DNA of 64,000 nucleotides from Capsulimonadales bacterium (GCA_033762295.1 JANRLW010000126.1:12660-76659), one strand, 5' to 3'; counted from the first letter of the stretch, positions 12,384-50,900 are shown. Notes: generated from the sequence alone by a model not told the origin. Numbers and translations: made by a program.

Positions 12384-12479
12384 ATCGTTTATTGCCTCAT
12401 AAACCCTGGGAACGAAGCGTCCCCGCTTCGTTCGAAACGCACAGAAAACGCGGCGTCGGTGCGATGACCGGGCGACCGG

Positions 12480-14471
12480 TTACCGGCTGCCGGGACGCTG
12501 TTGTCGGGCGAGAGCGGCTCGTTGCAGTCGCGCCCGTTCCGCCGCCGAGGCCGGAGCCGACCCGGTGGCGGGCGACGGCGGGACGGCCTTTCGTTCCAAC
12601 CTCCGGGCCAGGGCGCGTATGCTCGTGCATTCGAACATGACCGTGATCGGTAGGGTCGGGTCCAACCGCTGTCGCAGGCGGGCGTGGACCTGGACGATAT
12701 TGATGGAGTTTCCTCCGATATCGAAAAAGTTGGCATTCCGATCCGGGTCCGGAATGCGAAGAATGTCGCGCCACGCCTCGACGATCACCCGTTCGGTTTC
12801 ACTGGCAAGGTTCATGCCGGAAGGCGTGTTCGGCGGTGCGGATTGCGCCACCGGCAGCGGCAGTTCGGAAAGGGCGCGGCGATCGACCTTGCCGTTGGGC
12901 GTCAACGGCAGATTCGGAAGGGCGATCCAGTGGGCCGGAATCATATGGTCGGGAAGCCGCTGGCGCAGAAAGTCCTTCAGGACGCCGATGAGGGCGGTCG
13001 GCTCCGGCGCGCCGTCTCGACGAACGAAGTAGGCGGCCAGACTGCGTTCCTCGTCCGGTTTGCCCTTGGCGACAATCGCCGCATCGCGAATGTCGAAGTG
13101 CTGTTGCAGGACGGCTTCGATCTCCCCCATTTCGATCCGGAAGCCGCGAATCTTCACCTGGTGATCGACACGGTCGATAAAGTAGTAGTTACCGTCGGAT
13201 CTCCGCTGGACCAGGTCGCCGGTCCGGTACATCCGGGCGTTCGGTTCCGTGGTGAACGGGCAGGGGAGAAACCGTTCGGCGTTCAGTTCCGGGCGTTTGA
13301 GGTACCCCCCACCCACGCCGACGCCGGCCACCCAGAGTTCGCCGTTGACGCCCTCGGGCACGGGCTGCCGCGCCTCGTCCAGGACGAACAGTTCCGCGCC
13401 GGGGATCGCTTTGCCGATCGGGACGGGGTTTTCCAGGTAGGGAGCGACGCTCTCGATCCGATGGAACGCCGCGATATCGGTGCATTCGGTCGGGCCGTAG
13501 GTATTGACGATGACGGCCCGGTAGGTCTCCGATTCCATCCAGTCCCGCAGACGCGGAACGGAGATCGGTTCTCCGCCCAGAAAAACGCAGCGCAGGGACG
13601 AGACCGCGCGCAACTCCTCGGCCGACACCTCCTGAACGAGAGGGTAGAAGGCGCTCGGAGTGCAGTTCAGCAGGGAGATTCCGGCGTGGCGGATCTGTTC
13701 GCGGATCGCGACGGCGTCGTAGCGGGTAAAGGCGGGAAGATGCAGCTCTCCGCCGACAATCAAGGCGGCGTAAAGGTTCTTCTGGGTCAGGTCGAAACTG
13801 AAGGAGGAGATCAGCAGGGAGCGGTCGGCGGCGGTGATTTCGAACTCGTCGACGTACCAGCGCATCAGGTTGGAAAACCCCCGGTGGTAGACGACGGCCC
13901 CTTTCGGGCGTCCGGTCGAACCCGAGGTAAAGATCACATAGATGGGGTCATCGTCGGTGGCGATCGGCTCCAGGTCGATTTCGTCCTCGGGCGCGGTCTC
14001 TTCCATGGCCGCTTCCAGGGTCAGGGCGACGGTCCTGCCGTGACCGGGAAGGGCGAGGTGGGCGAGAAGGCTCTCCTGCGCCAGAAGGAAGCGGATTTCG
14101 GCGTCCTCGAGCATGAAGGCGAGGCGTTCGCGCGGGTAGGAGGCGTCCAGCGGAACATACGCTCCGCCCGCCTTGAGAATGGCGAGGAGTCCGACCATCA
14201 GGGCCGGCGACGGTTCGCAGTGCAGTCCGACGAGGACACCCGGTCCGACCCCCTGCCGTCGCAACTGGCGGGCGAGTCGGTTCGCGCGGGCGTTCAGTTC
14301 CCGGTAGGTGAGGGTGACGCGGGGTCCGACGACGGCGGCGCGGTCCGGCGTAAGGCGGACCTGGGCTTCGAACCGCTGCCAGATACGGGGTTCGTTACGA
14401 TCGCCGTTCGTTCCGGTCAGGTCCGCGGTCAAACTTTCCTCCCGCATTGCCGATCGGTTGCTGGTTACCAT
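12480..14471 (-). CDS. NRPS loading module A-PCP
   Basis: A core motifs FTSGSTGRPKG, YGPTE, YRTGD, KIRGFRIE, PNGKVDR; PCP IGGNSI; basic C-terminal tail. Confidence 0.93.
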   Translation of the reverse strand: MVTSNRSAMREESLTADLTGTNGDRNEPRIWQRFEAQVRLTPDRAAVVGPRVTLTYRELNARANRLARQLRRQGVGPGVLVGLHCEPSPALMVGLLAILKAGGAYVPLDASYPRERLAFMLEDAEIRFLLAQESLLAHLALPGHGRTVALTLEAAMEETAPEDEIDLEPIATDDDPIYVIFTSGSTGRPKGAVVYHRGFSNLMRWYVDEFEITAADRSLLISSFSFDLTQKNLYAALIVGGELHLPAFTRYDAVAIREQIRHAGISLLNCTPSAFYPLVQEVSAEELRAVSSLRCVFLGGEPISVPRLRDWMESETYRAVIVNTYGPTECTDIAAFHRIESVAPYLENPVPIGKAIPGAELFVLDEARQPVPEGVNGELWVAGVGVGGGYLKRPELNAERFLPCPFTTEPNARMYRTGDLVQRRSDGNYYFIDRVDHQVKIRGFRIEMGEIEAVLQQHFDIRDAAIVAKGKPDEERSLAAYFVRRDGAPEPTALIGVLKDFLRQRLPDHMIPAHWIALPNLPLTPNGKVDRRALSELPLPVAQSAPPNTPSGMNLASETERVIVEAWRDILRIPDPDRNANFFDIGGNSINIVQVHARLRQRLDPTLPITVMFECTSIRALARRLERKAVPPSPATGSAPASAAERARLQRAALARQQRPGSR

Positions 14472-21105: not shown

Positions 21106-24100
21106 ATGCAGTGGCTTGCCAGGGTTTCGGTGACCCGACCGATTTTCGCCGCGGTCCTGATTCTTTCATTGACCGTTCTCGGCCTTTTTACGCTGCCTCA
21201 ACTGCCGGTGGAACGGTATCCGAACGTGGATATCCCGTTTGTGACGGTAATGACCGTGGTGCCCGGAGCGGGGCCAAAGGAGATCGAGTCGGAGGTAACG
21301 GAGATTATCGAACGTAACGTCGGAACGGTGCCCGGTATCTCCACGATTACCTCGCAATCGTCCGAGGGGGTTTCGCTGGTAACGATCGAGTTTGTGATCG
21401 AGAAGAACGGGGATACGGCGGCGCAGGAGGTGCGCTCCAAGGTGGATCTAGCCCTTGCCGATCTGCCGGTAACGGCCGAACGCCCGGTCGTGGAGAAGTT
21501 TAAAACCGATGATGTCCCGATTGTCGCCTTCACGCTCACGTCGCCCGGAGCGCCGTTACGCGAGCTGACGGAGTACGCTCGCTTGAAACTGCGTCCGCAA
21601 CTGGAGGGTATCCGGGGCGTCGGTCAGGTAAGCATCGTCGGGGGAAGCGAGCGAGAAATCCAGGTACTGCTGGACCCGGAACGTCTGGCCGCGTTCGACC
21701 TTGCGCCGTCGGAGGTGCAAAGCGCCATCGAATCCCAGAATCTGCTGGTTCCCGGCGGCGCCATCGTTCAGGGGACGACGCGCTTCTCCCTGCAAACGGA
21801 AGGGCGAGTCAAAACCCTTGAACAACTGGCGGCGATCGTAATCCGGAAATCGGCAGGACGCGCCATCCGCCTTTCGGATGTCGGCCGGATCGTCGACGGT
21901 TCGAAGGAGGCGAAATCCCTCGCCCGTGTCAACGGCGAACCGGCGATCCTGCTCAATGTTCGCAAGCAGAGCGGCGAAAATACGGTCGCCGTCGTGGACG
22001 CCATTGAACAGCGCCTGAAGCGGATCGAGCCGACGATGCCGGAGGGCTACGAAACCCGGATCGTGCGGGATGAGGCGGTGTTTGTCAAGGCGTCCGTCCG
22101 GGACGTTCAGACGCACCTCATTCTCGGTTCGATCCTGGCCGCCGTCGTCGTACTCGTATTTCTGCGCGACTGGCGTTCCACAATCATCGCCGCGATCGCG
22201 ATCCCCGCTTCGATCATCGCGACCTTTGCGCTGATGAAGGTCCAGGGGTTCACGATCAACGTACTGACGCTTCTGGCGTTGACCCTGGCGGTCGGTATCG
22301 TGATCGATGACGCGATCATCGTCCTTGAAAACATCGTTCGTTACCTTAATGAGCGGACCACGGACCGGAAGGAAGCGGCGATCAAGGCAACCAATGAGAT
22401 CGGGCTTGCGGTCCTCGCCACTACCCTGTCGCTGGTCGCGGTCTTTCTCCCGGTCGCCTTTATCTCCGGGATTACCGGACGCTTCCTTGCCTCGTTTGCT
22501 TTGACCATGACGTTTTCGATCCTGGTCTCTCTGCTCGTCGCGTTCACCATTACGCCGATGCTCGGTTCGCTTTTCCTGAAACCGCATGCACACCCGCACG
22601 GCGCAGGGGATGTCCCCGGGAAACGGGATTGGTTGACGTTCGTCGAGGACGCCTATACCGCCGTCCTCGCCTCGGCAATGAGACATCGCTGGGTTGTGGT
22701 GGTGCTATCGGCGGGCGCGCTGATTGCCGTGGTGCCGCTCGCGCGTCATGCCAAGACAGGATTCCTCCCTTCCGAGGACCTGAGTATGTTCACGGTCACG
22801 GCGCGTTTGCCGGAAGGGACCGCCCTGTCGGAGACGGATCGGCAACTTTCCCTGCTGGCGAAGGAGCTTCAACCGCTGCCCGAGGTCAGTGCGACCGTGG
22901 TCACGGTGGGGGACGGAGGCATCACCAACCGGGGAACGATCCTGGTCAAACTCCATGAGATCCATGAGCGAAAACATCCTCTTTCTTCGTTCGACCTGAT
23001 GGCGAAGGTACGCCAGGAGATTCTGCCGCGTTATCCGAAGGACTGGACGATCACGGTGGCATCGACCGACTCCTTCTCCGAGAGTGATGCCTCGGTCCAG
23101 TATGTTCTGACCGGACCCGATCAGGACAGGCTGCTTTCTGCCGCCAATGCGATGGTTGCCGAGTTGAAGCGTCTGCCCGAAGTGGCGTCGGTCAGTACGA
23201 ATGCGTATCCGGGGAAGCCGCAATGGCAGGCGCAGATCGACCGGGAACGGGCCGCCGAATACGGGGTGTCGGTCGCCGATATCGCCCGGAACGTTCGTCT
23301 GCTGATTGAGGGGGAAAAGGTCTCACGATACAGCGAAAATGGCCGTCAGTTCGATATCCGGGTGCTCGCGGACGCCGATTTTCGGCATAATTCCGATGCT
23401 CTGCGTCGGTTCCGTGTTCCTGCGGCCTCGGCGACCGGCCCGACGACGATCCCGCTGTCCGACGTTGCCGGTTTCGTTCCTTCGACCGAACTCGCGGAGA
23501 TCAATCGGTACGGTCGTCAGCGGGAGATCCGGGTTCTGGTGGTGCCGGTGCCGAATGCCTCCGTCGGCGGGTTACAGGAGGTCGCGGAGCGTGTTTACGC
23601 GGCGCAAGGGCTTTCCTCGGAGTATCGGATGTCCGCTGAGGGAGACGCACAGGAGACTGAAAAGACGTTTGCCGCCTTCGGTATGGCGTTCCTGCTGTCC
23701 ATCACGTTTATGTATCTGATCCTGGCCGCACAATTCGAGTCCTGGGTCCATCCGGTGACGATCCTGCTGTCGCTCCCGCTCTGTGTGCCGTTCGCGCTCC
23801 TGCCGATCGTCGTGATGGGGGACTCTCTGAATCTCTATTCGCTACTGGGCATCCTGGTGCTCTTCGGCATTGTCAAAAAGAACTCGATTTTGCAGGTCGA
23901 CCATGCGAATCAGCTGCGTGCGTCGGGTATGGAAAGGAATAAGGCGGTGATACAGGCTTCTCGGGATCGTCTGCGCCCGATTTTGATGACGACCATCGCC
24001 TTCGTCGCCGGGATGATCCCGCTGGCGATGTCCCATGAAGCGGGAGCGGCGACAAATCGTTCGATCTCCATCGTCGTCATCGGAGGGCAGACGCTTTCCC

Positions 24101-25668
24101 TCGCTCTGACCTTGATTGCGACCCCGGTGTTTTACTCGCTTTTCGATGACGGGATTCAGTGGTGGGCGAAGCGTCGCCGGGGAACCGGGACGCGGGGCAT
24201 ACGGAGTGTCGCGACAGGCGGCCTTTTGCTGGCGCTCATGGTCTGGGGGGCGTCCGGGGCGAAGGCTCAGTCGTCCGCCGTGGCCGGAACGATCCGCAGC
24301 GTCGATGAAGCCGTACGGATCGGACTTTCTCGGAATGCCCAACCCCGGCTGGCCGCGGAGCAGGTGCAACGCGCGAAGGAGGTGACGGCGCAGTTCCGCG
24401 CCGCCCTGCGGCCACAGCCGTTCGTCGCGTTCACCTATACCCGGCTCTCGGACCCGAACGCCTTCGGAAGTACGGGATTGGCGGCGACCGGCAACCTGGC
24501 CGTGCCGGGCGGACCGTCGACCTCCCCGATTGCCCCGCCGGGAACGACGCCGGTCAACCTGCCCGATGACGCCGTACGCGTTACCCGGTCGCGTCAGGCG
24601 GACGCCGATGAACAGGAGACGTTGACACCGGAGGGGAATGCCAACCGGATCGATCTGAACGTGACGACGGCGCAGGTCGGCGTCAATCTCCCGATCGATA
24701 TTACCGGGACGTTACAGCGAGCGGTCCGAATCGGTCGACAGGATGAGGAACTCGCACGATTGCAGGAGGAGCAGGTTCGTCAGGAACTCGCGCTCACGAT
24801 CCGGATCGCCTGTTATCAGCTTCTGGCGGCGGAGGAGAGCGTGCGCGTGCAGGAGGCGGCCGTGGTCCGGGCGGTTGAACAGGTGCGTACGGTATCGGAA
24901 AGGCGTAAAGAGGGGGTGGTACCCGCTTTTGACCTGCTTCGTGCGAAAACGGAGGAACTGAGCATCCGACAGGCGGAAATCAATGCACGTAACCAGCGGG
25001 ACGTAGCGCTGTCCGCCCTGACCAATCTTTTGAACGTTCCGGCGGAGACACCGATCCGACTGGAAAGTCCGGAACTCCCCTCGGAACCGTCGTTGACGCT
25101 TTCCGATCTGCTGACACAGGCGCTGGCGGCGCGCCCGGAGGCGCGTTTTGCGCGACTCAGCCTCGATCGTTCCGCGAACGCCGTTCGTTACGCCCGTCGG
25201 GGTTTGGAACCGCAGTTCAATCTTTCGGCGTCGGGGGTATACAATGCAAATCAGGCGGGGTTCGGCTTCAGCGCTCGTCGGGCGACGGCCAGCGTCTCCG
25301 CCGTCGTTTCGTTGCCGCTGGACGATGGGGGAACGACCCGTGCGCAGGTCCGAACCGCCCGTTCGGAACAGCGTGAGGCGGACCTGCGGCGCGACCAATT
25401 CCAGCGGGGAATCGTCGCGGAGGTGGAGCAGAACCTGATTGCCGTTCGGGACGCCTATGCCCGCCATGCGGTCGCCCGGGAGGCGATCCGGGAAGCGAGA
25501 GCCGCGCTCGATATCGCCGCCTTGCGGTTTTCCGCAGGAGTCGGCACCCAACTGGAAACGCTGGATGCGCAGTCCGCTCTCACCCGTGCGGAGGGGAACG
25601 CTGCCAGCGCCCGGTTTGAGGTGTTGAGCAGTCTGGCCCGACTCAAACGCGCCCTCGGCGAGGGGTGA
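21106..25668 (+). CDS. AcrB-family RND permease fused to a TolC-family outer membrane factor
   Basis: First ~1020 aa carry IVIDDAII, IVKKNSIL and RLRPILMTT proton-relay motifs; last ~470 aa show two OEP-like repeats (FDLLRAK; GVGTQLETLDAQ). One uninterrupted ORF. Confidence 0.9.
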   Translation: MQWLARVSVTRPIFAAVLILSLTVLGLFTLPQLPVERYPNVDIPFVTVMTVVPGAGPKEIESEVTEIIERNVGTVPGISTITSQSSEGVSLVTIEFVIEKNGDTAAQEVRSKVDLALADLPVTAERPVVEKFKTDDVPIVAFTLTSPGAPLRELTEYARLKLRPQLEGIRGVGQVSIVGGSEREIQVLLDPERLAAFDLAPSEVQSAIESQNLLVPGGAIVQGTTRFSLQTEGRVKTLEQLAAIVIRKSAGRAIRLSDVGRIVDGSKEAKSLARVNGEPAILLNVRKQSGENTVAVVDAIEQRLKRIEPTMPEGYETRIVRDEAVFVKASVRDVQTHLILGSILAAVVVLVFLRDWRSTIIAAIAIPASIIATFALMKVQGFTINVLTLLALTLAVGIVIDDAIIVLENIVRYLNERTTDRKEAAIKATNEIGLAVLATTLSLVAVFLPVAFISGITGRFLASFALTMTFSILVSLLVAFTITPMLGSLFLKPHAHPHGAGDVPGKRDWLTFVEDAYTAVLASAMRHRWVVVVLSAGALIAVVPLARHAKTGFLPSEDLSMFTVTARLPEGTALSETDRQLSLLAKELQPLPEVSATVVTVGDGGITNRGTILVKLHEIHERKHPLSSFDLMAKVRQEILPRYPKDWTITVASTDSFSESDASVQYVLTGPDQDRLLSAANAMVAELKRLPEVASVSTNAYPGKPQWQAQIDRERAAEYGVSVADIARNVRLLIEGEKVSRYSENGRQFDIRVLADADFRHNSDALRRFRVPAASATGPTTIPLSDVAGFVPSTELAEINRYGRQREIRVLVVPVPNASVGGLQEVAERVYAAQGLSSEYRMSAEGDAQETEKTFAAFGMAFLLSITFMYLILAAQFESWVHPVTILLSLPLCVPFALLPIVVMGDSLNLYSLLGILVLFGIVKKNSILQVDHANQLRASGMERNKAVIQASRDRLRPILMTTIAFVAGMIPLAMSHEAGAATNRSISIVVIGGQTLSLALTLIATPVFYSLFDDGIQWWAKRRRGTGTRGIRSVATGGLLLALMVWGASGAKAQSSAVAGTIRSVDEAVRIGLSRNAQPRLAAEQVQRAKEVTAQFRAALRPQPFVAFTYTRLSDPNAFGSTGLAATGNLAVPGGPSTSPIAPPGTTPVNLPDDAVRVTRSRQADADEQETLTPEGNANRIDLNVTTAQVGVNLPIDITGTLQRAVRIGRQDEELARLQEEQVRQELALTIRIACYQLLAAEESVRVQEAAVVRAVEQVRTVSERRKEGVVPAFDLLRAKTEELSIRQAEINARNQRDVALSALTNLLNVPAETPIRLESPELPSEPSLTLSDLLTQALAARPEARFARLSLDRSANAVRYARRGLEPQFNLSASGVYNANQAGFGFSARRATASVSAVVSLPLDDGGTTRAQVRTARSEQREADLRRDQFQRGIVAEVEQNLIAVRDAYARHAVAREAIREARAALDIAALRFSAGVGTQLETLDAQSALTRAEGNAASARFEVLSSLARLKRALGEG

Positions 25669-26980: not shown

Positions 26981-27562
26981 ATGAAATACACTATTTCGGT
27001 AACGGAGGCTGGGGGAGCAAGGGAGAAGCTGGTTTTGGAAAGCCGGGCGGGGGAGAGTGTCCGGCATATCGTGTTGAAGATAGTCGCCTATCTTCTTTTT
27101 GCGCCGACGGCTCCGGGGCCGTTGCGTATCGAACAGGCGGTCGGCCAGCGTCACCGTCCGGATCTGGTGGTGACGGACCCGGCGTCCGGCGCGGTGGTTC
27201 TCTGGATCGATTGCGGCCAGATCGAGACCCGACGCCTGGGTCGGATCGCGGCGTCCAACCCCGGGGCGCTGCTCTATGTGGTCAAGTCGACGTCGCGGGA
27301 GGCGTCGTCCTACGCCGAATCGGCGGTTCGGTTTTTGCCTGAGGGAGGGGAGCGGCGGGACCGCATTCGGTTCGTCGGGTTCCGGGACGGTTTCACCGAC
27401 GACGTGGTGGCGGCGGTCCGCAGCCGGAACGAGATCGTCGTTCGATCGGTCGGCGACCTTTTCGAGGTCGATTGGAACGGGGTGCGTCTGGTGACCGGGG
27501 TGACGGAACTCCGCGCCTCGGTGATCTTCGGGGCGGGCGAAACGGTATCAACGCCATCGTAG
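26981..27562 (+). CDS. YaeQ-like protein (PD-(D/E)xK-like fold)
   Basis: ESVRHIVLKIVAY, RPDL, LWIDCG pattern typical of the YaeQ family. Confidence 0.7.
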   Translation: MKYTISVTEAGGAREKLVLESRAGESVRHIVLKIVAYLLFAPTAPGPLRIEQAVGQRHRPDLVVTDPASGAVVLWIDCGQIETRRLGRIAASNPGALLYVVKSTSREASSYAESAVRFLPEGGERRDRIRFVGFRDGFTDDVVAAVRSRNEIVVRSVGDLFEVDWNGVRLVTGVTELRASVIFGAGETVSTPS

Positions 27563-27957: not shown

Positions 27958-30120
27958 ATGCGCTTTCGTGCCGGTTCAACGCTAATCTATCCGCTGTTGC
28001 TGGCTATAACCGTGTCTTCCGGCCTGGTCCTGAATGCGGGCTGCGGCGGTGGCAGCAGCAGCCCCAAGCCGACTCCGGGCGGTTCGACCCCGACCCCGAC
28101 CCCGACCCCGACCGCCACGCCGACCCTGTCCGAGACAAGTGTCCGGCCGACGATCATCTGGTCGCCGCGAAGCCGTCAAGTCGTGACCGACAACGCCGTC
28201 AGCGGACCGGCTTCGGCCCTGTCGGTCGTGCTGACGCTGTCGCAACAGTCGCAACAGGGGGGCAATACCAATAAGTTTGTCGAGACGTTCAATCGCTCCG
28301 TTCCCATCTCCGGCGGTCCGCAGACCTACGAGACCCGCACTAAGGTGCTGCCTGCCGTCTACAACCTGACGGCGGTCTTCCATGCCGGGGCCGACGGTAG
28401 CGGCGCGGTCGTCGGAACGGCGGCGGCGGCGGTAACGGTCAACCCCGACGGCACGATCTCCACCACGATCGCCACCCGGGGCACCATCGAGCAGGTCGAG
28501 GTGCTTCCCGGTCAGACGGTTCGGATCGGTGAAACCAAGGATGTTCTCTACAGCACCCGCGACCGGGACGGGAACGTCGTGGCGGTTTCGCCCGGTTCGG
28601 GCTTCGTCGCGATCGTCGATGCGACCTCCCCCGAGCAGAGCACGACCGGCCAGGCCACCATCACCGCCTCCGGCGAACGGATTACCGGCGTTAACCCGTA
28701 CCAGGCGCGAATCAAGGTGACCGTCGACGGCACGGAAAGCCCCGTGGTCTCCGTGAAAGTCCTCTCCAACGTCGCGATCGATGTCAATCCGAAGAACGCG
28801 ACCATCTCCACCGGACTGGTCGGCGTCTTTACGGCGACGGTGACGAACGACGGCCCGCCCGCCAGCAGCGGCGTCCGGTTTACCATCAACCCGGTCGCCG
28901 GAACCCTGACCCAGCCGAACGCGACCACGGCCAACCTCGTGGCCGGTAGCCGGGATGTCGAGGGCGATTACCAGCTGGTCGCCACCAGCGTCTACGACCC
29001 CAACGTTTCCGTAACGATCCCGGTGACCGTCCGGTCCCTGGTCGCCGTGAACATCTCGCCCGAAACCGTTCCGACCGTCTCCTTCAAGGGCGGTACGCAG
29101 CAGTTCGCGGCAACGGTCGCTCAGGTGCCCGAGGGCCGCGATAACGGCGTCCTCTGGTCGGTGATTCCGGCCGAGGCCGGGACGATCTCCCCGAGCGGTC
29201 TGTTTACCGCCGGAGCGACCCCCGGACGCGTGACGGTTCGCGCGACCAGCATCTTCGACGACCGCAAGTTCGACGAAGTGTCCTTCGACGTCGCCTCGCT
29301 GGCCGTCGTCCGGATCACGACCCCGACCCCGATCGCCCCGATCTCGATCAAGACGACCCGCGCCCTTGCCGCGGCGGTGGACAACGTTCCCGCCGGACAG
29401 GATGCGGGAGTGAACTGGTCGGTCCAGGGCGGCGCGGCCAACGGGACGATCGACGCCAACGGCAACTATACGGCCCCGGCGACCCCGGGCGATTACACGG
29501 TCGTCGCGACCAGCCGCTTCGACGCGACGAAGACCGCCAGCGTCGTGATTCCGGTCCGCTCGTTTGTCACGGTCGCGGTTCCGGCCCAGCCCGACCTCTC
29601 GATCAAGGACACCCGAACGCTGACCGCCACCGTAACCGGCGTGCCGGAAGGCGCGGATGCCGGGGTCACCTGGACGATCGCCCCGGCGACGGGAACGCCC
29701 GCCGGCACCGATATCGGCGCGATCGATGCGAATACCGGCGTGTATAGGGCTCCCGCCAACCCGGTGAGTATCGTCGTCACCGCGACCAGCAATTTCGACC
29801 CGACGAAATCGGCTTCCCGGCCGCTCGCGGTCAGGTCGCTGGTGGTCATCAACGTGACGCCGGAAAACGCGACCATCTCGGTCAACGCTCGCCAGCAGTT
29901 CACGGCGGCCGTGACCGGAGTGGCGACGGGCGGCGATACCGGAGTGGACTGGCGCGTGGTCACCGCGAACGGTGGCACGATTGACGCCAACGGACTCTAT
30001 GTCGCCCCGGCGACCCCCGGTGACTACGTCATCGAAGCCAGGAGCAAGTTCGACCCCGCCAGGATCAGAACAGTTACCGTCCGCGTTCGCACCGGCAATC
30101 TCGGTGTCGGAGTGAACTAG
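27958..30120 (+). CDS. Lipoprotein with N-terminal beta domain and tandem Ig-like (Big_2-like) repeats
   Basis: GAGGAG RBS before ATG 27958; lipobox NAGC; PT linker; about five ~87-aa repeats (V..W.V....GTIDANG.Y.APATPG.Y.V.ATS.FD). Confidence 0.85.
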   Translation: MRFRAGSTLIYPLLLAITVSSGLVLNAGCGGGSSSPKPTPGGSTPTPTPTPTATPTLSETSVRPTIIWSPRSRQVVTDNAVSGPASALSVVLTLSQQSQQGGNTNKFVETFNRSVPISGGPQTYETRTKVLPAVYNLTAVFHAGADGSGAVVGTAAAAVTVNPDGTISTTIATRGTIEQVEVLPGQTVRIGETKDVLYSTRDRDGNVVAVSPGSGFVAIVDATSPEQSTTGQATITASGERITGVNPYQARIKVTVDGTESPVVSVKVLSNVAIDVNPKNATISTGLVGVFTATVTNDGPPASSGVRFTINPVAGTLTQPNATTANLVAGSRDVEGDYQLVATSVYDPNVSVTIPVTVRSLVAVNISPETVPTVSFKGGTQQFAATVAQVPEGRDNGVLWSVIPAEAGTISPSGLFTAGATPGRVTVRATSIFDDRKFDEVSFDVASLAVVRITTPTPIAPISIKTTRALAAAVDNVPAGQDAGVNWSVQGGAANGTIDANGNYTAPATPGDYTVVATSRFDATKTASVVIPVRSFVTVAVPAQPDLSIKDTRTLTATVTGVPEGADAGVTWTIAPATGTPAGTDIGAIDANTGVYRAPANPVSIVVTATSNFDPTKSASRPLAVRSLVVINVTPENATISVNARQQFTAAVTGVATGGDTGVDWRVVTANGGTIDANGLYVAPATPGDYVIEARSKFDPARIRTVTVRVRTGNLGVGVN
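28085..28113 (+). repeat. (CGACCC)n hexamer tandem repeat encoding a Pro-Thr linker
   Basis: Four full copies plus a partial copy, in frame. Confidence 0.85.
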
Positions 30121-30122
30121 TT

Positions 30123-32348
30123 ATGAGGAGCAAACCTTACATGAGGACATACGTACGGGGGGCGCGTCCGGTGGTTCATCGCCCCGGTCTGCGCGCGGTC
30201 TGCATCAGCATTGCGGCCGTCACCGCCCTGGGAATCGTTGCGCCGTTGTCCGGTTGCGGTAGCGGCAGTGGGGCTCTGCGCCCGGTCGCCGGAGTCACCC
30301 GGGCGAAGGGGACCGTCACCATGACGGTCTCCTGGCCCGCCCGGACCCGCCTGATTCCGGAGGTCGCCAACTCCATCCGGATCACGCTGGAACGGCTTCC
30401 GGATACGGCCATTCCGACCCCGAGGACCGTCGATCCGATCGTGATGAATCGACCGTTCACGACCGACGGCTCCGGAACGACCACCGCCACCTTTACCAAC
30501 CTGGAACTCGGGACGTACCGGGTGGTCGCGACCGCGTTCCCCGGCACCGGCACGCCCGGAATCCCGAACCCGACGACCGGCGAGAACGTTCCGGTCGCGA
30601 CCAAGGAAGCGGGAACCGTCGTGGTCGGAGCGGGAAATAACACCGTCACCCTGACGATGGATTCGACGATCGCCGTTCTGGAGCCGCTGCTCCCCGACAC
30701 GTTCCCGCGCGATACCGCCGGGAACCTGATTCTGGCTCCGTCCGAAGCCGTTCAGTTCGATATCGTCGCCTATGACGCGGCGACGGCCCCGCGAAACCGC
30801 GTTCTGTTCACCAAGTCGAAACTCAAATACGAGGTGACCCAGCAGAACGGCGCCAATGTCACGGTCAACTCCACCGGATTGGTGCAGGCGGTCAGCCTCG
30901 GCAACCCGCGCGTACCGGGATCGGCGACCATTCGAGTGACCGATGAGGAATCCGGAAAATCGTCCTCGATCGTGATCAACGTCGTGCCGGCCGGGCTTTC
31001 CCGGTTCGCCCAGTGGGCGCGTTTCCGTGGCGATTCGCAAAACACCGGCCAGGTGCGCGATGCCGGAATCCCGATCCTCGATGCGACGGGTCGTAGCGGA
31101 GCGGGACAGAACTGGCCGTTCTTTACCCAGAGTTCGATCATCTTCTCCTCGCCGGTAATTGCGGAGGACGGAACCATCTATATCGGAACCGTTTCCAAGG
31201 GCAACCCGCCGACCGGAGGCGATCAGACGCTCTTTGCGATCAACCCCGACGGGTCGCAGAAATGGCGTTTCGATGACGCCGGCAACATGGGGGATATCGA
31301 GGGCACGCCGACCATCGGGCAGGACGGCACCGTCTACATCGGTTCCACCAACGGTATCGTGTACGCCATTGAGGATACCGGAAGCGCGCCGCGGGTCAAG
31401 TGGACCTTTAACGCGGGCCGCGCGATCTATTCCTCCGTCGCACTGGGGCAGGACAACACCCTGTTCGTCGCGACGGGCGCGGACGCGAACGAAAAGAGCG
31501 ATGTCTACGCCCTCTCCGTCGTGACCGGCCAGAAGATCAAGGCGCGTCAGGTCGACGGCACGGTGAAGGACTGGGAACTCAGTGAACGGGTGGACGGCGA
31601 GATTCTCGGATCTCCGGCTCTTTCGCGCGACGGTTCGTTCCTCTTCCTGACGACGATGAGCGGGAACGTTTATGCGTTCCGAACCGGCGCGAACGGCACC
31701 CTCGGCGGAACCCGCCAGTGGCAGACGAACCCGAACGGCAACGGAATCCAGGCCGCGCCGGTCGTCACCCGCATCGGCGCAACCGATGTGGTCGTGGTCG
31801 CCACCCTGAACGGACGGGTGTTCGCCCTGCGAACGGACACGGGCGCGTCGACCAGCGGTTGGCCGGCTCAGGGATATGATTCCGGCGAAGCGCAGATCTA
31901 CTCGACACCGACGGTTCGCGAGGACGATGCCGGTATCGCGCAGTTTATCTACATCGCGACGCTGGATAACTCCTCCGGCTCCTTCGATCACAAGGTCGTC
32001 GGCCTGAACGCCGCCGACGGGACCGAAGTCTGGCGGACACCGGTCGGCCTGTTCCCCGAAGGATTCACCTCCTCGCCGATCCTGAGCGGGGACGGAACCG
32101 CGCTTTACATCGGCTGCTTCGACGGGAATGTCTACGCGGTGGACGCCGATCCGGCGAACGCCAACGCGGAGCACGGGCTCGTTCAGGTCAATGTTGGCGG
32201 AACCCTGACGGACTGGATCTTCCCGACCGTCTCCCCCGGACAGTCCAACAACCTGGAATCGTCGCCTACCGTCGACAAACAAGGGCATCTTTATATCGGC
32301 GGTCTGGATGGACGGGTGTTCTCGATCGGGAACAACCCGGCAAAATAG
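30123..32348 (+). CDS. Lipoprotein with N-terminal beta domain, Ig-like domain and PQQ-like beta-propeller
   Basis: Lipobox LSGC; WARFRGDSQNTG and repeated SSP.I..DGT.YIG...G..YA.....G..KW blades; start may be 30141 (GAGGAG upstream). Confidence 0.85.
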   Translation: MRSKPYMRTYVRGARPVVHRPGLRAVCISIAAVTALGIVAPLSGCGSGSGALRPVAGVTRAKGTVTMTVSWPARTRLIPEVANSIRITLERLPDTAIPTPRTVDPIVMNRPFTTDGSGTTTATFTNLELGTYRVVATAFPGTGTPGIPNPTTGENVPVATKEAGTVVVGAGNNTVTLTMDSTIAVLEPLLPDTFPRDTAGNLILAPSEAVQFDIVAYDAATAPRNRVLFTKSKLKYEVTQQNGANVTVNSTGLVQAVSLGNPRVPGSATIRVTDEESGKSSSIVINVVPAGLSRFAQWARFRGDSQNTGQVRDAGIPILDATGRSGAGQNWPFFTQSSIIFSSPVIAEDGTIYIGTVSKGNPPTGGDQTLFAINPDGSQKWRFDDAGNMGDIEGTPTIGQDGTVYIGSTNGIVYAIEDTGSAPRVKWTFNAGRAIYSSVALGQDNTLFVATGADANEKSDVYALSVVTGQKIKARQVDGTVKDWELSERVDGEILGSPALSRDGSFLFLTTMSGNVYAFRTGANGTLGGTRQWQTNPNGNGIQAAPVVTRIGATDVVVVATLNGRVFALRTDTGASTSGWPAQGYDSGEAQIYSTPTVREDDAGIAQFIYIATLDNSSGSFDHKVVGLNAADGTEVWRTPVGLFPEGFTSSPILSGDGTALYIGCFDGNVYAVDADPANANAEHGLVQVNVGGTLTDWIFPTVSPGQSNNLESSPTVDKQGHLYIGGLDGRVFSIGNNPAK

Positions 32349-32398: not shown

Positions 32399-32587
32399 AC
32401 TTCCGGAGGGTTCCGGAATTAACGGTCTTCAACGGAACGCACCGCGCCTTGTTTGTGCGGTTGACGGTTCGCGCCGGAAACTCACCGTGCGGGAACCGCG
32501 CAACGTGGTCGGCATCGACCGACGAAACGGCGGCCAGGACACGTGAACCGCACCGGTTCCGGCGGTTGTTCCGAATTGGAGAAGGAA

Positions 32588-35500
32588 ATGCACTGGATTC
32601 ATTCTATGAAACAAACATGGCGACGACAGGCACGGAACCGTTTTATAACGGCAGCCTGCCTTCTCTCCCTGGTGGCGATCGCTTCGCAGTCCAACGCCCA
32701 GCGAAGCCTTCCCCCGGATAAACGTCAGTTTCTTCTGAACACCACCATCGGTCCGAACGGACGCGTTCTGCCGCGTCGCGCCCGGACGCCGCTGGTTCCG
32801 CTTCGGATGAAATACCGCGTCACCAGCCCGTCGGTCTCCGCGGCCTGGCGAAGCTACCTGAAGAACTATCCCGAGACAAAACCGGACCTCGAGGCGCTCC
32901 GCAAAGCGCTTCAGCAGCGGGACAACATGCCGTCCGCCGCGCTTTCCGGCCGCACTGCCGGGCCGCTCGTGCCGGGCCGGCCCGCACCCCGTCTCGGCGG
33001 CAATCGCGGGGACGGCGGGCTCGCTCTCGGTGGCGGATTCACCCGGAACGCCGGACGCCAGAATATCGCGACGGCGACCAATCGAACGTGGATCAGCGAA
33101 GGTCCGTTCGATGTGACGCCTCCGGCAGACGCCAACCAGCAAATCTTCTTCGGCAACAAGAAGATCGCGGGTCGTGTCAACGGGATCGCCCATGACAACG
33201 CGGGCAACGTTTATGCGGCGACCGCGGGCGGTGGCCTCTGGAAGTTCAAGCCGAACCCGAACTTCGATCCGGAAACCCCCTGGGACCCTCTGAATCCTCG
33301 CCTGCTGATCGATCCGTACAATTCGTCCGATCCCAGCCCGAAACCGCTTTCCGACTTCACCTTTCCGACGTTGCAGACCAGCAGCGTGGCCGTGGACCCG
33401 CGGAACAACCGGGTGATTTATGTGGGAATGGGCGACTACAGCCTGGCCGGGCGGGATGTCGTCATCGGGAACGGATTGTTCCCGGCGCGTCTGAGCAATA
33501 ACATCAACTACAGCGTCGGAATGATGAAGACCGTCAACGGCGGAACGACCTGGTTCAACATCGCCAATGGTCGGCTGAAAGAACCGCGGCGCACAAGCAC
33601 GACGACGTTGAACCCGGGAACGACGCTCGATTCGATCGATCCGGCGCTGTCCAACTTCGATGACGAGTACAATTTCGGTCGGATCAAGATCACTTCCGGC
33701 GCGCTGAACGGACAGGTTCGGACCATCACGGACTACGTCGGAAACGCGGGTACCGTCACGGTCGGCGGCGTTCAGTTCATTATCCACCGATTTACCGTCG
33801 ATGCGGCGTACCCCACGATCCCTGCGCCGCCGGCAGGAACCACCGGGTACACCATGGATCTGCAGCCGCCGATCATGGAGGGAACCGCCGTCAGCTCGAT
33901 CGTCGTCGATCCGGACGATTCTCGTCGTCTGCTGGCCACCACCGGTCGGGGCGTCGGGCCCGGTCGAATCTGGGTCTCGACCGATGCGGGCAATAACTGG
34001 GAACTGGCCCGCTTCTCCACCGGTCAGCCGTTGCCGATCGGCGACTACAGCAACGTCGATTACAGCCTCCCGTTCACCGACGGTACGACCAATTTGAGGA
34101 CGCGCGTCTATTATGCCGCCTCGGTCGGCCAGGGAATCTACCGGTCCTTCGACCGGGGAGTAACCTGGGAGCAGATGAACGTTCCGCTGGTCTTCAACGA
34201 TCCGAACCGGGGCGGCGTCCCGGCGGGCGGCCCGGAACTCGGGTTGAAGGTCGTCGCCGGACGGAAACAGGGAAATGCCGGTCTTGTCTACGTTTTTGAT
34301 GCGTCCGGCGGATTCTTCGATGGCCGGGTCCTGAAGAGTCTCGACGGAAATAACCGGACCGGGGCCGGTTGGACCGATATCACCGGCAACTATCCGCGTC
34401 CGGAAGACGCCAACAACTTCGACTTCGCCAACTACGATACCACGCTCGGAATCGGTCAGGCGATCGTCAATGTGCTTCAACTGGATGGCGTCGGGAATGT
34501 TGTTCCGACCGGGAAGACGGTCACCCAGGAAGTGCTTCTGGGCGGTCAGCTCTTCATGGGCGCGGCGCTCGGGGCGGTCAGTATCAACAACGGCATCTAC
34601 GGTAGCACCATATCCGGTGTTCCGAACCTGCGCCTTGACACCGGCGTCGGTCAGGACTGGGCGGAAATCGCTCAGGGAGTAACTCACGGCTTCCATCATG
34701 CGGTGACGTTCGACAACATCAGCCCGTTCCTTGGCTTTTCGGCTAACGATGGTGGCCTGTACCAGATCTCCTACCAGCCGGGCGCAATCGTCGTTCCCGC
34801 CGCGGACGATCCCGATCAGACCCCGCTGTTCTTCAACGGAGCCACCTTCGAATACGACATCCTGGACAACGGACAGGAACCCAACCAGGATTTCCGTATC
34901 TCCGAAATTTACCGGGCCGATTTCCTGGAAACCGATCCCGGTACGACTCCGAGCCGGAATGTCGTTCGCATGGTCGGTTCTCTGGTTTCCAACGGGATGG
35001 TTCAGGGGACGGCGGACTACACCGGAACGACCCCGAATCGTTTCTGGTCGTCCCTCTCCTTCGTCTTCGATAATCAGTTCCTCAGCGATACCTTCTTCAC
35101 CAATCCGACCGATCCGACCCGACTAGATCCGATGCCCATACGTTTCGATGCAAACGGTGAGGCGCTGAACGATCCGAACGGAGTCCGGTTCGCCCCGATC
35201 CTCGATCCGCCGCTGATCTTCGGCTTTGAGATCGATAACATCGTCTTCGATCCGACCGATCCGACCGGTAACACGCAGTACATGATCACTGCCGGCGAAC
35301 CGTCCACCCCCTGGGGCGACCCGGATAACACCGGCAACTCGTGGAAATCGATTTTCATGACCCGGGACAACTGGACGAGCTATCAGGACATCACGCCCAA
35401 CCGGTACCTTTCCGTGTTCTTCGGAGTGGTGGATGCCCCGGACCGGGACGGCCCCCTCTTTATCTACAACTCCCTCGAACCGGCCGATACGGCCACGCCG

Positions 35501-36928
35501 GGGAACTGGACCGGGGAGGGACGTCCTTACGTCGGTATGCCGATCGCGTTCGGGTTCACTCCGCAAATTTCGGGAGCGGGCCTTGGAAATCAGTTCATTC
35601 CGAACACGGCAACCCCGTTGCCAACCGCCAACGGTCCGGGAGGTCTGACCAACCAGTACACCGAGACAACCCTCTATACCGGCGGCCAGTTCCTCTGGCG
35701 GTTCGATCCGCCCGGCAGTCTGGCGAAGCCGAAATATCCGCCCGGACCTCTCGGACGGACCGCGAACCCGACGGACGGAAGCCCCCCGTACAACTACTTT
35801 GAGCGGGTCTTCCCGAACCTCGATTACGGCGCCTGGCGGCGGGTCAGCCCGCAGCTGGCGACGGGAACCGATTACATCACGGCCATCGCGATCGAACCGA
35901 TCCGCGGCAGTGATGCGGAGGCGGTGCTGACCAACAACCGAATCTATGTCGGTACGTCGAACGGCTCCGTCTGGATCACTCGGGATGGTACCGACCTGAC
36001 GCCCGCTTCGGTGCAGGCCGATTACATCGCTACCACGGCCGCCGAATGGCGACAGATCGCCGGACCCGGGGTCAACGGAAACACGTTGCCCGCCCGCCCT
36101 GTGACGTCGATCAGCATCAATACGGACCCGTCGGCGACCAACCTCGGTGACATCATCGTCACGCTGGGCGGCGCGCCGAACGTCGCCCGCGTCTGGAGGT
36201 CGACCAACACCACCGGCGCCGTGACGCCGATCTTCACCGCGGTCAGCGGCCAGGGATTCGCCTCCCTTCCGGATGTGCCGGTGAACGGTCTCGCTCGCGA
36301 CCCGGATGACCCGACCAACACGCTCTATGCCGCGACCGATCTCGGGGTGTTCACCAGCATCGATGGTGGCGCGACCTGGAGCAATGCCACCGCGCCGCTC
36401 GGACTGCCGAACGTCGAGTGTACCTCGATCAAGGTCATTCCCGGTCGCCGGGACACGATCGGAACACGGTCGCCACGGCAACTCTACGTTTCCACGTTCG
36501 GACGGGGTATCTACCGGTTCGACCTCAACGATCTGGTGACGTCGAATTCCCGACCGAACCTGAGGATCACTCAGAACTTCACCCGGAACGGCAACGAGAT
36601 CATCGTTAACGTGATCGTCACCAACGTCGCCACTCCCGGTCAGGCGGTCGGAACCGCCTTCGACGTGCGATTGACCGGAGCGACCCTCCAGGCCGACAAT
36701 AACCCCACTCAGGTTTCGTCGACGTCCTTCTTCGACGGACCGATCGGCATCGGAACGATCGCGCCGGGCCAGTCTCAGGTGGTGACCATCCGGTTCCCGG
36801 CGAGCGTCGGGCGGCCGGGACGGGCAGTGATCTTCCGCGCTAACGGCTCGCTGACTCTGCCGCCGTTCCCGCCCGGAACGCCCAGCACGTTCAGCAACGG
36901 GACCGGTTACCGAACCCGACTTCCGTAG
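32588..36928 (+). CDS. Large secreted BNR/Asp-box beta-propeller protein with C-terminal Ig-like domain
   Basis: Signal peptide ending SNA-Q; Asp boxes KTVNGGTTW, STDAGNNW, SFDRGVTW, SIDGGATW; LYAATDLGVF and LYVSTFGRGIY blades (VPS10/GH74-like architecture). Confidence 0.82.
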   Translation: MHWIHSMKQTWRRQARNRFITAACLLSLVAIASQSNAQRSLPPDKRQFLLNTTIGPNGRVLPRRARTPLVPLRMKYRVTSPSVSAAWRSYLKNYPETKPDLEALRKALQQRDNMPSAALSGRTAGPLVPGRPAPRLGGNRGDGGLALGGGFTRNAGRQNIATATNRTWISEGPFDVTPPADANQQIFFGNKKIAGRVNGIAHDNAGNVYAATAGGGLWKFKPNPNFDPETPWDPLNPRLLIDPYNSSDPSPKPLSDFTFPTLQTSSVAVDPRNNRVIYVGMGDYSLAGRDVVIGNGLFPARLSNNINYSVGMMKTVNGGTTWFNIANGRLKEPRRTSTTTLNPGTTLDSIDPALSNFDDEYNFGRIKITSGALNGQVRTITDYVGNAGTVTVGGVQFIIHRFTVDAAYPTIPAPPAGTTGYTMDLQPPIMEGTAVSSIVVDPDDSRRLLATTGRGVGPGRIWVSTDAGNNWELARFSTGQPLPIGDYSNVDYSLPFTDGTTNLRTRVYYAASVGQGIYRSFDRGVTWEQMNVPLVFNDPNRGGVPAGGPELGLKVVAGRKQGNAGLVYVFDASGGFFDGRVLKSLDGNNRTGAGWTDITGNYPRPEDANNFDFANYDTTLGIGQAIVNVLQLDGVGNVVPTGKTVTQEVLLGGQLFMGAALGAVSINNGIYGSTISGVPNLRLDTGVGQDWAEIAQGVTHGFHHAVTFDNISPFLGFSANDGGLYQISYQPGAIVVPAADDPDQTPLFFNGATFEYDILDNGQEPNQDFRISEIYRADFLETDPGTTPSRNVVRMVGSLVSNGMVQGTADYTGTTPNRFWSSLSFVFDNQFLSDTFFTNPTDPTRLDPMPIRFDANGEALNDPNGVRFAPILDPPLIFGFEIDNIVFDPTDPTGNTQYMITAGEPSTPWGDPDNTGNSWKSIFMTRDNWTSYQDITPNRYLSVFFGVVDAPDRDGPLFIYNSLEPADTATPGNWTGEGRPYVGMPIAFGFTPQISGAGLGNQFIPNTATPLPTANGPGGLTNQYTETTLYTGGQFLWRFDPPGSLAKPKYPPGPLGRTANPTDGSPPYNYFERVFPNLDYGAWRRVSPQLATGTDYITAIAIEPIRGSDAEAVLTNNRIYVGTSNGSVWITRDGTDLTPASVQADYIATTAAEWRQIAGPGVNGNTLPARPVTSISINTDPSATNLGDIIVTLGGAPNVARVWRSTNTTGAVTPIFTAVSGQGFASLPDVPVNGLARDPDDPTNTLYAATDLGVFTSIDGGATWSNATAPLGLPNVECTSIKVIPGRRDTIGTRSPRQLYVSTFGRGIYRFDLNDLVTSNSRPNLRITQNFTRNGNEIIVNVIVTNVATPGQAVGTAFDVRLTGATLQADNNPTQVSSTSFFDGPIGIGTIAPGQSQVVTIRFPASVGRPGRAVIFRANGSLTLPPFPPGTPSTFSNGTGYRTRLP

Positions 36929-47932: not shown

Positions 47933-50900
47933 ATGGGTTTCCGATCGCTTTTCCCGCTCCGATGCCTCTCCCTTATGCTCTGTGCGTGCCTCTCCGTTCC
48001 GTTGCCCGCCCTTCCGACCGAACGGGCCCCGAAGCGACCGGCGACCGGGAAGGAGGAGGGAACCGGACCGGCTCGTCGGAAACCGGGAACGCCGCCCCCT
48101 CTGCCAAAGCCGACCGTCGCCCGAACACCGAATACACGCCCGTTGTTACGGCCGAACGAGTTTCTCGCGCCATCGCAGTTGCGACGCGGCATGAAAGGCG
48201 TGGGGTTGACCGTCTTTCAGGGAAATCGGATCGAACGTTTCGATGTGACGATTCTGGGGGTGGTCCGCAAGGCGAACAACGGGCGCGATCTAATTCTCGT
48301 CCGGCTTTCCGGGCCGACGTTGCGGCGGGTCAGCGACATTATTTCGGGAATGAGCGGTTCGCCGGTCTATGTCGGGGGAAAGATCATCGGCGCGGTGGCC
48401 TACGGCGCATCGTTTACGCGGGAAAGCATCGGGTATGTGACTCCGATCGAGGATATGCTGGAGGCGTGGGACCCGGGGCTTCCGCAGACGCCGGATGACA
48501 ATCCGGCTCCGTTACCGGAACCCCCCGACTCGGATTTGACGGTGCCGCTTTTCGTATCCGGACAGCGTTACGACCGGGTCCGAATCGATTCGGCGCGTAC
48601 CGGCGCTTCGCCCCCCGGCGTCCTTCGATTACGCCCGCTGATGGCCCGGGTGACGGTCACGGGCGTTTCCGGCCCCCGGTTCGCGACGGTCGCACGAGAG
48701 CTGGCCGAAATCGGCCTGGACGCCCGGCGGAACGGGGGAGGCGTCGCGGCCCCCGGACTGACCGGGTCGCCGTTGACCCCCGGCGGGGCGGTGGCCATGA
48801 GTCTGGCGACCGGCGACATCGACATTACCGGGATCGGGACGGTGACCTACCGGCGTGGCGATCGAATCGTCGCCTTCGGACACCCGTTTCTCGGTATCGG
48901 GCCGTTGCGGGCACCGATGTTCACCGCCTATATCCATGACATCCAACCCTCGTTCAACGAATCGCAGAAGGTCGGGTCGCCGGTGACGCTGGTTGGTGCC
49001 TTCTCTCAGGATCGACCCTATTCCATCAGCGGACGGATCGGTGACACCCCGTCCATGATGCCGTTGACCGTTCGGGTGCGCGACCGAATGATGGGGAAGG
49101 TTCGCACTTTCAAAGCGAAATTGATTCGCCATCCGCTTTTGCTTTCGCGGCTCATCAATATCGCGTCCTCGGCGGCGGTGGCCGAGATTCACGGGCAGCC
49201 GGGTGAGGCGACCGCGGTGGTGACCACGACGGTGGAAACCGAGGGTTTCGGAACGATCCGCCGGACCAACCGCGTCCAGGACAGCGCCGCGATCGAGGGA
49301 GCGGTCGGCGAGGATCTGAAGAACGCCGTCAATTTTCTTCTGAACAACTCGTACGGACGGGTCGGGATCCGGTCCGTCGCTATGGAAGTGGATATCACGC
49401 CGGGGAAACAGACCGCGACCATCGAACGGATCTTTTTACCCGGTACCCGATTCGAACCGGGCGAGACCATCGAGGTGGGCGCGGTCCTCAAACCGTACCG
49501 TAAGCCCGAACAGGTTCGCCGCCTGACCCTGAAGATTCCGCCCGGCACGGCTCCGGGAGTCTATAATCTGACGGTCCAGGGTGGGCCGACCGGGTACGCC
49601 TCCTCCGGACTCCTTTCCCTTTTCATGGGGCGCGGGATCGATTTTAGCGGCACCACCAGCGTCCCGCAGATGATCCGTCGTTACGGGGAACGGGACCGGA
49701 ACGACGCGCTGGTCGCCCGCCTGACGCTGCCGACATCCTCGCTTTCCGTCCGTGGTGAAAAGCTGGACGGACTCCCTCCCAACCTGGAGGCGGTTCTGCG
49801 AATGATCGCCGGGCGGACCTCCGGAACCCGACTGGAACGGGACGAATGCAAGACCGTGGCGACAACGCCGTGGGTTCTGTCCGGTATGCAGACTCTGCCG
49901 GTCCGAATCGGAGTAAAAGGCGGCGTCGAACCGGTTCCCGGTTCGCCCGTCGTCGCCCCGTCGGCTCCGTCGCCGGAGGCCGGTCTGCCACTCCCCGCAC
50001 CGGTCCCCCCTTCGCCTCAGTCGGCTGACCGTGGCACGGGAGGGGTTGTGCGTCGGGAGAGCGGATCGGAGCGAGTGAGCGAGGTGCGCGATACGGCACG
50101 AGATCCCGGCACGGGCGGGTCGGAAGCGAACGAAGGGGCGGAGCGAACCGGGGCGTCCCCGGAGTCCGCTCCGGAACCGGCCTCCGCCGCGCCGAAAATG
50201 GTCGGGCGTCCTCCGGGAATCTGGCGGCAGGTGGCGCCCAACGATTTTCGTTCGGGGGTTCGGGATGGGGTGACACTGACCGGCCAGGGAACGCTGCAGT
50301 TCGGCCCGCGTCTTCGGCGTATCGCGGACTGCAACGAACCGGTCTTCTGGTGTCTGACATCGGACGGTGAGGGCGGCGTCTTTGCCGGGAGCGGGGAGCA
50401 GGGACGGATCTACCGGGTATCGACCGGCGGGAAGTGTGACGTCGTCGCAACGACCGGGGAGATTGCCGTCCATACGATGGTTCGGTCAGGAAACGGGGAT
50501 CTGTTTGCCGGAACCTCGCCAAATGGGAAGGTGTTCCGAATGCGCCCGGACGGAAAGGTGCGACTGCTGTTCCGGGCGGAGGAAAAGCACGTCCTCTCTC
50601 TGGCGCTTTCGCCCGACGAGACGATACTTTATGCCGCGACCGGGGGACCCCGTGCCGCCGTTTATGCCGTTCCGCTCTCCGGGTCAGGCGGAGTCACGAC
50701 CGTTTACCGAAGCGGCGAAGGCAGCGTGACGACGCTCCATTGCGATCGGGACGGAACTCTGTATGCGGGCACCGCGCCGAACGGGCTGTTTCTTCGCCTG
50801 ACCGGATCGAACGGCCGGGCGATCGAACGGCCCGAAGTCCGGTTCGACGCGCCGGAGCCGGCCATCACCGGAATCCGGGTTCGCCCCGACGGCGGAGCCT

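Follow-up and report, generated by a model that had tools for sequence, protein, structure and literature searches.

Can two lipoproteins of a Capsulimonadales bacterium be joined at the cell surface by the exchange of a single beta-strand, in the manner of the pilins of Bacteroidia? This question is raised by a gene pair in a stretch of 64,000 nucleotides (GCA_033762295.1, JANRLW010000126.1:12660-76659; in the following, the window). The two open reading frames, P0001 and P0002, lie on the plus strand, are separated by 2 bases and encode putative lipoproteins, here called protein 1 and protein 2 (Table 1). The initial annotation had proposed that protein 1, a stalk or linker, and protein 2, a tip adhesin, belong to a surface filament which is assembled by donor-strand complementation following a cut directed by Arg. 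All motifs and coordinates quoted there proved to be correct, and the assembly chemistry gained computational support from protein classes, gene order, strand register and structural models. The filament fared less well, as described below.

The answer which we favour, with slightly better than even confidence, is donor-strand exchange after an Arg cut, with protein 1 as base and spacer of a short chain that carries protein 2. Both proteins would be exported as lipoproteins to the surface, as their lipoboxes suggest. Each begins with a seven-stranded prealbumin/transthyretin-like domain (N-domain), in which the lipid-tethered first strand (b1), judging from a model of a homologue, forms the centre of a b4-b1-b7 sheet. 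An Arg-specific protease, most likely a clostripain lipoprotein, would cut protein 2 after Arg76; the last 8 residues of protein 1 (the tail) are modelled as displacing b1 and filling the groove of protein 2, and thereby the membrane attachment of protein 2 would pass to protein 1. The latter should remain anchored by the lipid and first strand that it has itself, and the seven domains of protein 1 would keep the propeller of protein 2 off the cell surface. The product would be a short chain, ordered from base to tip, rather than a long pilus. Throughout the phylum, highly diverse cargo domains could be joined through this interface to interchangeable anchors and spacers. That a strand is inserted in one way or another is considered quite probable.

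That the two first domains are homologous, as had been claimed, became apparent with profiles, which were needed since a pairwise BLASTP comparison was not significant (E 1.2). An iterated profile from either domain retrieved the other (4.6e-15 and 5.5e-17, with the database size set to 5000). For family comparisons, 100 members from 60 regions and the window formed a first set, and 65 members from 40 further regions were held out. Among Armatimonadota, the profile has matches in 99 of 201 genomes (59 of 116 genera), and it also matches 2532 clusters at 50% identity; relatives of P0001 are present in 16 of the 18 genomes of the same taxonomic family, and the named relatives are Armatimonas proteins. 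A narrow 9-residue pattern, applied genome-wide, yielded 19 loci, 15 of them in named Armatimonadota lineages. The bacterium's own genome (94% complete) contains six family members; another cluster, on contig C38, accounts for three of these and repeats the donor-then-acceptor layout. The sixth (G000:C99:20713-21849, L166) is devoid of the Trp which otherwise ends b1 and of a tail.

Pfam matches among the 100 N-domains were sporadic and reached at best 7 members; a sequence search of the PDB gave nothing significant (best E 0.022), and Foldseek returned only generic immunoglobulin (Ig)-repeat matches of high root mean square deviation (rmsd). Mfa2 and DUF4493 appeared in the ESM Atlas with a score of only 0.78, behind unnamed clusters, and were kept as a lead, not as evidence. 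No description of the family was found in the open literature, a search outside of which most subscription papers lie.

A lipobox-like Cys is present, by pattern, in 99 of the 100 members. In the family, b1 ends in an invariant Trp, and the Arg following it is conserved to at least 90%. In 98 of the 100 members and in 63 of the 65 held-out ones, the Trp is followed at a distance of up to about 14 residues by a small residue plus Arg or Lys, compared to 1312 of 5681 background windows (23%); this conservation is somewhat circular, as the profile by which members were selected scores that Arg too. The Arg is kept while the loop varies in length, and some members have Lys. It is a conserved residue of a variable loop, which was modelled with lower confidence (77-86) in the homologue L056; this check, one of those named in the initial annotation, did not refute the proposal. 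In two tail-bearing tandem proteins (L086, P0022) the Arg is absent from the first, lipid-proximal domain, which fits what anchors should show. Two subtypes of the family can be distinguished: that of protein 2 has a b1 started by Gly and an R-LIP loop, and that of protein 1 has neither.

The tail was described by the pattern G-x-small/hydrophobic-x-h-x-h-x-stop (h, hydrophobic). It ends 32 of the 100 members, compared to 54 of the 24,120 stop-to-stop frames in the bacterium's own genome, is conserved among the members carrying it and was found at the end of 7 of the 150 best representatives; being strict, the pattern overlooks some likely tails (e.g., L112, L125, L129, L140). Protein 2 does not have it and ends in a propeller (PF13360, E 7.6e-14), as had been noticed initially. 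The family thus comprises donor-only, acceptor-plus-donor and acceptor-only lipoproteins, the three classes which strand exchange would predict. In the loci of the first set nine donor-only lipoproteins, with tail and without N-domain, were identified (14 frames had matched the tail pattern, of which 5 were dropped as spurious). What precedes the tail in them is a bare Pro/Thr linker (L054, L057), an I-set Ig domain (L064, L098, L099) or a series of Big_2 repeats; the bare linkers indicate that the tail stands apart from the Ig fold, and it does not appear as an integral strand of the last Ig domain in the model described below, so that this initially named check did not refute the proposal. 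With the pattern fixed, the 40 held-out loci contained ten donor-only genes, nine of them directly upstream of an N-domain gene and one directly downstream. Adjacent pairs had the tail-bearing gene upstream of the tailless one in 32 cases and the reverse order in 1 (first set, which retains one spurious frame, in L086, and lacks one real anchor, in L099), and in 13 versus 3 cases in the held-out set.

Tail and b1 also agree in register. The mean BLOSUM62 score per position was +1.38 at shift 0, and -0.88 and -1.28 at shifts of one. For 52 real donor-acceptor pairs a score of 11.1 was obtained versus 9.6 +/- 0.45 for shuffled ones, and 1 of 2000 shuffles reached it. All 52 genes downstream of a donor belong to the subtype of protein 2 (49 by pattern, 3 by eye). 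Within the subtype of protein 1 none of the 24 tail-bearing genes has a donor gene upstream, and the tail compared with the own b1 gave a mean BLOSUM62 sum of 1.7 (n=24) versus 12.6 in the R-LIP subtype (n=15). Because of the missing upstream donors and the dissimilarity of b1 and tail, protein 1 is better read as a membrane-proximal base and spacer, which is its most likely role as far as sequences can tell, and the product is more probably a short chain than a long fibre. Of the initial terms, "stalk" and "filament" are the less well supported ones.

Duplicated tails were seen in G000:C38:44638-45696 (L110:6639-7697), L080, L094, L096 and L077, where two to three donor-like strands are connected by a G-x-F-P-x-T spacer; possibly several acceptors are bound per donor, or a two-strand donor is formed as in type V pilins. 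Tandem proteins with two to three N-domains (P0016-P0019, P0023, P0024, P0031, P0038) look like pre-joined chains.

As a stand-in for the window proteins, the short homologue L056 was folded by AlphaFold2 with and without its first strand. The intact model (predicted local distance difference test, pLDDT, 93.6) consisted of the seven-stranded N-domain, a Big_2 domain and the tail as a coil. When b1 was omitted, b4 and b7 were no longer assigned as strands, which points to b1 as the middle strand of the sheet. For a model of the complex, protein 2 was taken as if cut after PARTR (residues 77-296) and paired with the C-terminal 95 residues of protein 1. The score was 0.83 (median of three runs) versus 0.13 for the best of 3 controls, the runs agreed in at least 99% of contacts, and the pLDDT of the partner was 93. 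The mark applied is reached by 116 of 157 solved and by 2 of 215 mismatched pairs, rates which are only rough with the alignments used here. The tail of protein 1 was placed between b4 and b7 of protein 2, parallel to b7, with Leu715, Val717 and Val719 touching both strands. This model supports, rather than shows, binding of the tail to protein 2.

Several observations weigh against the proposed exchange. In L056 without b1, the tail did not settle in the groove of its own molecule, although the two-domain geometry may prevent it from reaching there. The 3 complex controls comprise neither an acceptor with intact b1 nor a tailless donor; a strand-deficient domain may accept any strand, and the high score may stem from likeness to solved strand-complemented pili. 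Kin and paralogues in the family counts are not independent. Internal domains of most tandem proteins keep the Trp-Arg loop, so that the Arg may be partly structural, and protein 1 retains its own RSR, which would be superfluous for a pure anchor; it may serve self-polymerisation, shedding of the whole assembly or a structural role. Two adjacent genes in L147 (G210:C21) are without an Arg/Lys site, and three genomes (G020, G021, G030) have Arg-bearing members and no clostripain match. A donor gene directly upstream is absent for 81 of 126 tailless members, which may retain b1 or rely on donors from other loci, and no donor-only gene was found in the own, nearly complete genome.

Some of these points would suit other explanations. 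The same chemistry could produce a long fibre, if protein 1 also took up its own tail and homopolymerised to a stalk capped by protein 2. A homopolymer requires no upstream donor gene, protein 1 combines an Arg loop with a tail, and the Arg motif is kept in all 11 orthologous first genes; moreover, the cleaved strand and the C-terminus of Mfa1/FimA are only weakly similar, according to PMC13655056, and the 15 tail-bearing members of the R-LIP subtype, whose tails match their own first strand, could polymerise. We nevertheless regard a fibre as rather unlikely at this locus, in view of the poor match between tail and own b1 in the subtype of protein 1, its lack of upstream donors and the fact that genes after a donor always belonged to the other subtype. 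In addition, the number of Ig repeats varies among orthologues of protein 1 (366-692 residues in the mature form), as would be expected of a spacer, and the own genome yielded no separate anchor. A further proposal, that the Arg loop is a site at which clostripain releases the proteins singly, the tail being left partnerless or on a sheet edge, is improbable. It could apply to the subtype of protein 1 even with protein 2 as an acceptor, many tailless members stand alone, and fragipain cleaves and sheds many surface lipoproteins, as stated in a review (PMC12632263). However, a cut after b1 takes away a middle strand, which would be a poor design for release, and neither the donor-only lipoproteins directly before acceptors nor the register of tail and b1 would be explained.

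Still less probable, if only by a little, is a strand swap without proteolysis, where the tail would take the place of b1 or be added to it, with both lipids kept and the Arg in a structural function. The complex model is silent on the cut, and the Arg in internal tandem domains and the members in genomes without a clostripain match would be accommodated; the persistence of Arg despite variable loop length, and of Lys in some members, would not, and an acceptor which kept its own lipid would hardly need separate lipid anchors consisting of a linker plus a tail. The least credible possibility is that these are ordinary Ig-repeat lipoproteins which do not join at all, the tail being either an export signal or the first strand that remained from a lost repeat. 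The tail indeed stands where the first strand of a next repeat would begin, and the second domains match ordinary Big_2 proteins. Yet the tail is conserved, occurs after unrelated domains or none, docks in the complex model and is absent from tailless members, which need export too.

For the cut which strand exchange between proteins 1 and 2 would require, the own genome offers a single clostripain (C11) gene with a lipoprotein-like product. The C11 family presumably is Arg-specific, and this lipoprotein is the most likely candidate. Family and protease are linked by fusions, in which a clostripain stands behind an N-domain, often a divergent copy (L152, L163, L164, L165, L172-L177, L180, L186, L188, L190). 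Such fusions were present in 2 of the 12 best C11 loci and in 2 further ones, picked for overlapping coordinates; of 20 more clostripain loci, taken mainly from genomes where single matches were weak, 10 carry an N-domain in the same frame, and the state of the Arg loop in the fusions is mixed. C11 occurs in 91 of the 99 genomes with the family and in 37 of the 102 without it, a co-occurrence which is inflated by the fusions and not used as independent support. With family matches of E<=1e-15, 49 of 55 genomes had a clostripain, kin again not being independent. The genome containing L147 (G210) showed only a weaker clostripain match. Gingipain (C25) gave no match in the own genome, a result which is uninformative since the positive control was equally silent. 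Surface clostripain is described as cutting Bacteroidales pilins in the same review (PMC12632263). Fragipain and doripain (C11, Bacteroidales) are comparable as surface clostripain lipoproteins acting on lipoproteins, and the own genome too encodes a putative C11 lipoprotein; they differ in that some clostripains here carry the family N-domain.

Type V pili, with a FimA/Mfa1 stalk, a FimB/Mfa2 anchor and Mfa3-5 as accessory and tip proteins, appear to be the closest parallel in operation. Shared traits are lipoprotein precursors (here by lipobox pattern), a lipid-tethered first strand in a b4-b1-b7 sheet (here modelled), an Arg in the b1-b2 loop and a C-terminal donor strand (here by prediction), the classes donor-only, donor-plus-acceptor and acceptor-only (here across the family, with no separate anchor at this locus) and clostripain or gingipain as protease (here a candidate only). 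For Mfa1, a 2026 paper (PMC13655056) places the anchor strand b1 in one sheet together with b4 and b7; there, type V pili are called unique to Bacteroidia. In contrast to those, the relatives found here are named Armatimonas or Armatimonadota. Type V pilins have two transthyretin-like domains and two donor strands spanning both, whereas here one acceptor domain is followed by Big_2 repeats and the donor is a single strand of 8 residues. The tail is, unlike in those pilins, not self-complemented in the monomer model, anchors are often without an N-domain altogether, and a long fibre is unsupported for this locus.

In structural comparison, the N-domain of L056 was aligned, from their first strands on, with Mfa3 (5nf4; Z 7.2, rmsd 3.0, 95 residues aligned) and the FimA1 prepilin (6jzk; Z 6.8, rmsd 3.5, 91 aligned), and a Parabacteroides adhesion protein (3liu) likewise fell within Z 6.8-7.2. 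These values are middling and tied with unrelated CnaB/prealbumin-like folds; they would be compatible with kinship, but are not proof of it. The second domain of the homologue was modelled and aligned as Big_2 (7quz, Z 11.5, rmsd 1.6, 87 aligned; 8gyr, Z 10.3), and Pfam recognises Big_2 in homologues. Mfa2 (PF08842) and P_gingi_FimA (PF06321) gave no match in the own genome, while a control genome was matched, and they were not among the best 25 of 29 Pfam families for the 100 N-domains. The pair may work like a type V pilus, but can not be counted as one because of its Big_2 second domain, its one short donor strand, the missing pilin-family match and the different phylum.

In chaperone-usher pili, TasA and archaeal cannulae or threads, an incomplete beta-sandwich is likewise completed by a strand of the neighbour. 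Their donor strands are N-terminal and, to our knowledge, they are not lipoproteins and use no exchange triggered at Arg. The Ig repeats of protein 1 are comparable to surface proteins with Big_2 repeats (LigA, intimin, the S-layer proteins SbsC/Sap), as they match Big_2 structures; those are single chains, for which we know of no acceptor domain or donor tail.

The position of protein 2 at the tip is probable. It may or may not be an adhesin; tailless members carry propellers but also enzyme-like domains: in 37 scanned proteins, WD40/PD40, NHL, FG-GAP and PQQ propellers, CBM6, di-haem peroxidase, dioxygenase, FGE, YkuD and DUF3500 were found, and FKBP and clostripain occur as cargo as well. 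BamB matches to the whole of protein 2 failed the curated cut-offs, with 36 bits versus 285 (TIGR03300) and 32 versus 423. Protein 1 is covered by no family in Pfam or NCBIfam.

Table 1. Features of the gene pair and of the adjoining third gene; positions are counted from the first nucleotide of the window.
Feature	Position	Strand	Remarks
Protein 1 (P0001), putative lipoprotein of 720 residues	27958..30120	+	N-domain, six Ig-like domains, C-terminal donor strand; probable base/spacer
Signal peptide and lipobox (Cys29), protein 1	27958..28044	+	Sequence pattern, putative lipidation; NAGC at 28033-28044, Asn at position -3
Tether of protein 1, rich in Gly/Pro/Thr	28045..28134	+	
N-domain of protein 1	28135..28482	+	Subtype without R-LIP and without Gly starting b1
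b1 of protein 1, TSVRPTIIW	28135..28161	+	First strand of N-domain, invariant Trp at end
Arg loop of protein 1, SPRSR	28162..28176	+	Candidate cut site, role uncertain in its subtype
Spacer of protein 1	28483..30093	+	Big_2-type Ig repeats, 1 divergent and 5 similar; the five with E 9e-14 to 4e-31 (profile of alignment A2), first repeat weak
C-terminal donor strand of protein 1, GNLGVGVN	30094..30117	+	Final 8 residues
Protein 2 (P0002), putative lipoprotein of 741 residues	30123..32348	+	Acceptor N-domain, one Big_2-like domain, beta-propeller, tailless; probable tip
Signal peptide and lipobox (Cys45), protein 2	30123..30257	+	LSGC at 30246-30257; Met at residue 7 may be the true start
b1 of protein 2, GTVTMTVSW	30309..30335	+	Predicted to be cut off, with the donor strand taking its place
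Arg loop of protein 2, PARTR	30336..30350	+	Predicted cut after Arg76
Remaining acceptor N-domain of protein 2 (b2-b7)	30351..30668	+	Groove between b4 and b7
Beta-propeller of protein 2, BamB/PQQ-type	31011..32345	+	Putative cargo; below NCBIfam BamB cut-offs
Third gene, large secreted BNR/Vps10-like protein	32543..36928	+	Conserved beside the pair

A homologue of the third gene lies downstream in 9 of 11 other loci which carry this gene pair. Its product has an unnamed C-terminal domain of about 125 residues (about 36550-36925), which ends in RTRLP in 7 of 7 listed homologues, an end oddly resembling the R-T-R-L-I-P loop of acceptors. Domains akin to it end two other proteins of the own genome (contigs C48 and C11), and weak leads in the Atlas pointed to carbohydrate-binding modules. 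Upstream of the pair a YaeQ-like gene (26981-27562) is located, which adjoins the pair also in L052 and L102. Scans for promoters and terminators were no better than chance. Elsewhere in the window, a hybrid gene cluster for non-ribosomal peptide and polyketide synthesis (1597-14471, minus strand) contains an embedded class III aminotransferase domain; a resistance-nodulation-division-type efflux permease runs, by eye, into a TolC-like outer-membrane domain in one frame of 1520 residues (21106-25668); and a protein of 1467 residues (47933-52336) combines a SpoIVB-type peptidase S55 domain with an Ig domain at its C-terminus.

A wider system is conceivable, to which we give somewhat less than an even chance: throughout Armatimonadota, an acceptor domain and a strand of 8 residues would clip any cargo to interchangeable lipid anchors and to spacers of selectable length in a protease-triggered surface display, the cargo being propellers, lectin-like domains, redox enzymes, isomerases and even the processing clostripain. 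If true, the logic of type V pili would reach a distant phylum with different parts and would serve enzymes as well as adhesins, and such a minimal form of protease-mediated strand exchange would broaden a principle now described for Bacteroidia. Whether common descent or convergence relates it to type V pili would then become a question. An acceptor domain of about 105 residues and its 8-residue peptide might also serve as a compact, protease-gated tool for protein assembly. Type IV pilus genes have so far been proposed for surface structures of this phylum, according to PMC4072686; beside them, the poorly studied Armatimonadota would gain a further candidate surface structure, and a large unnamed protein family would be given a function.

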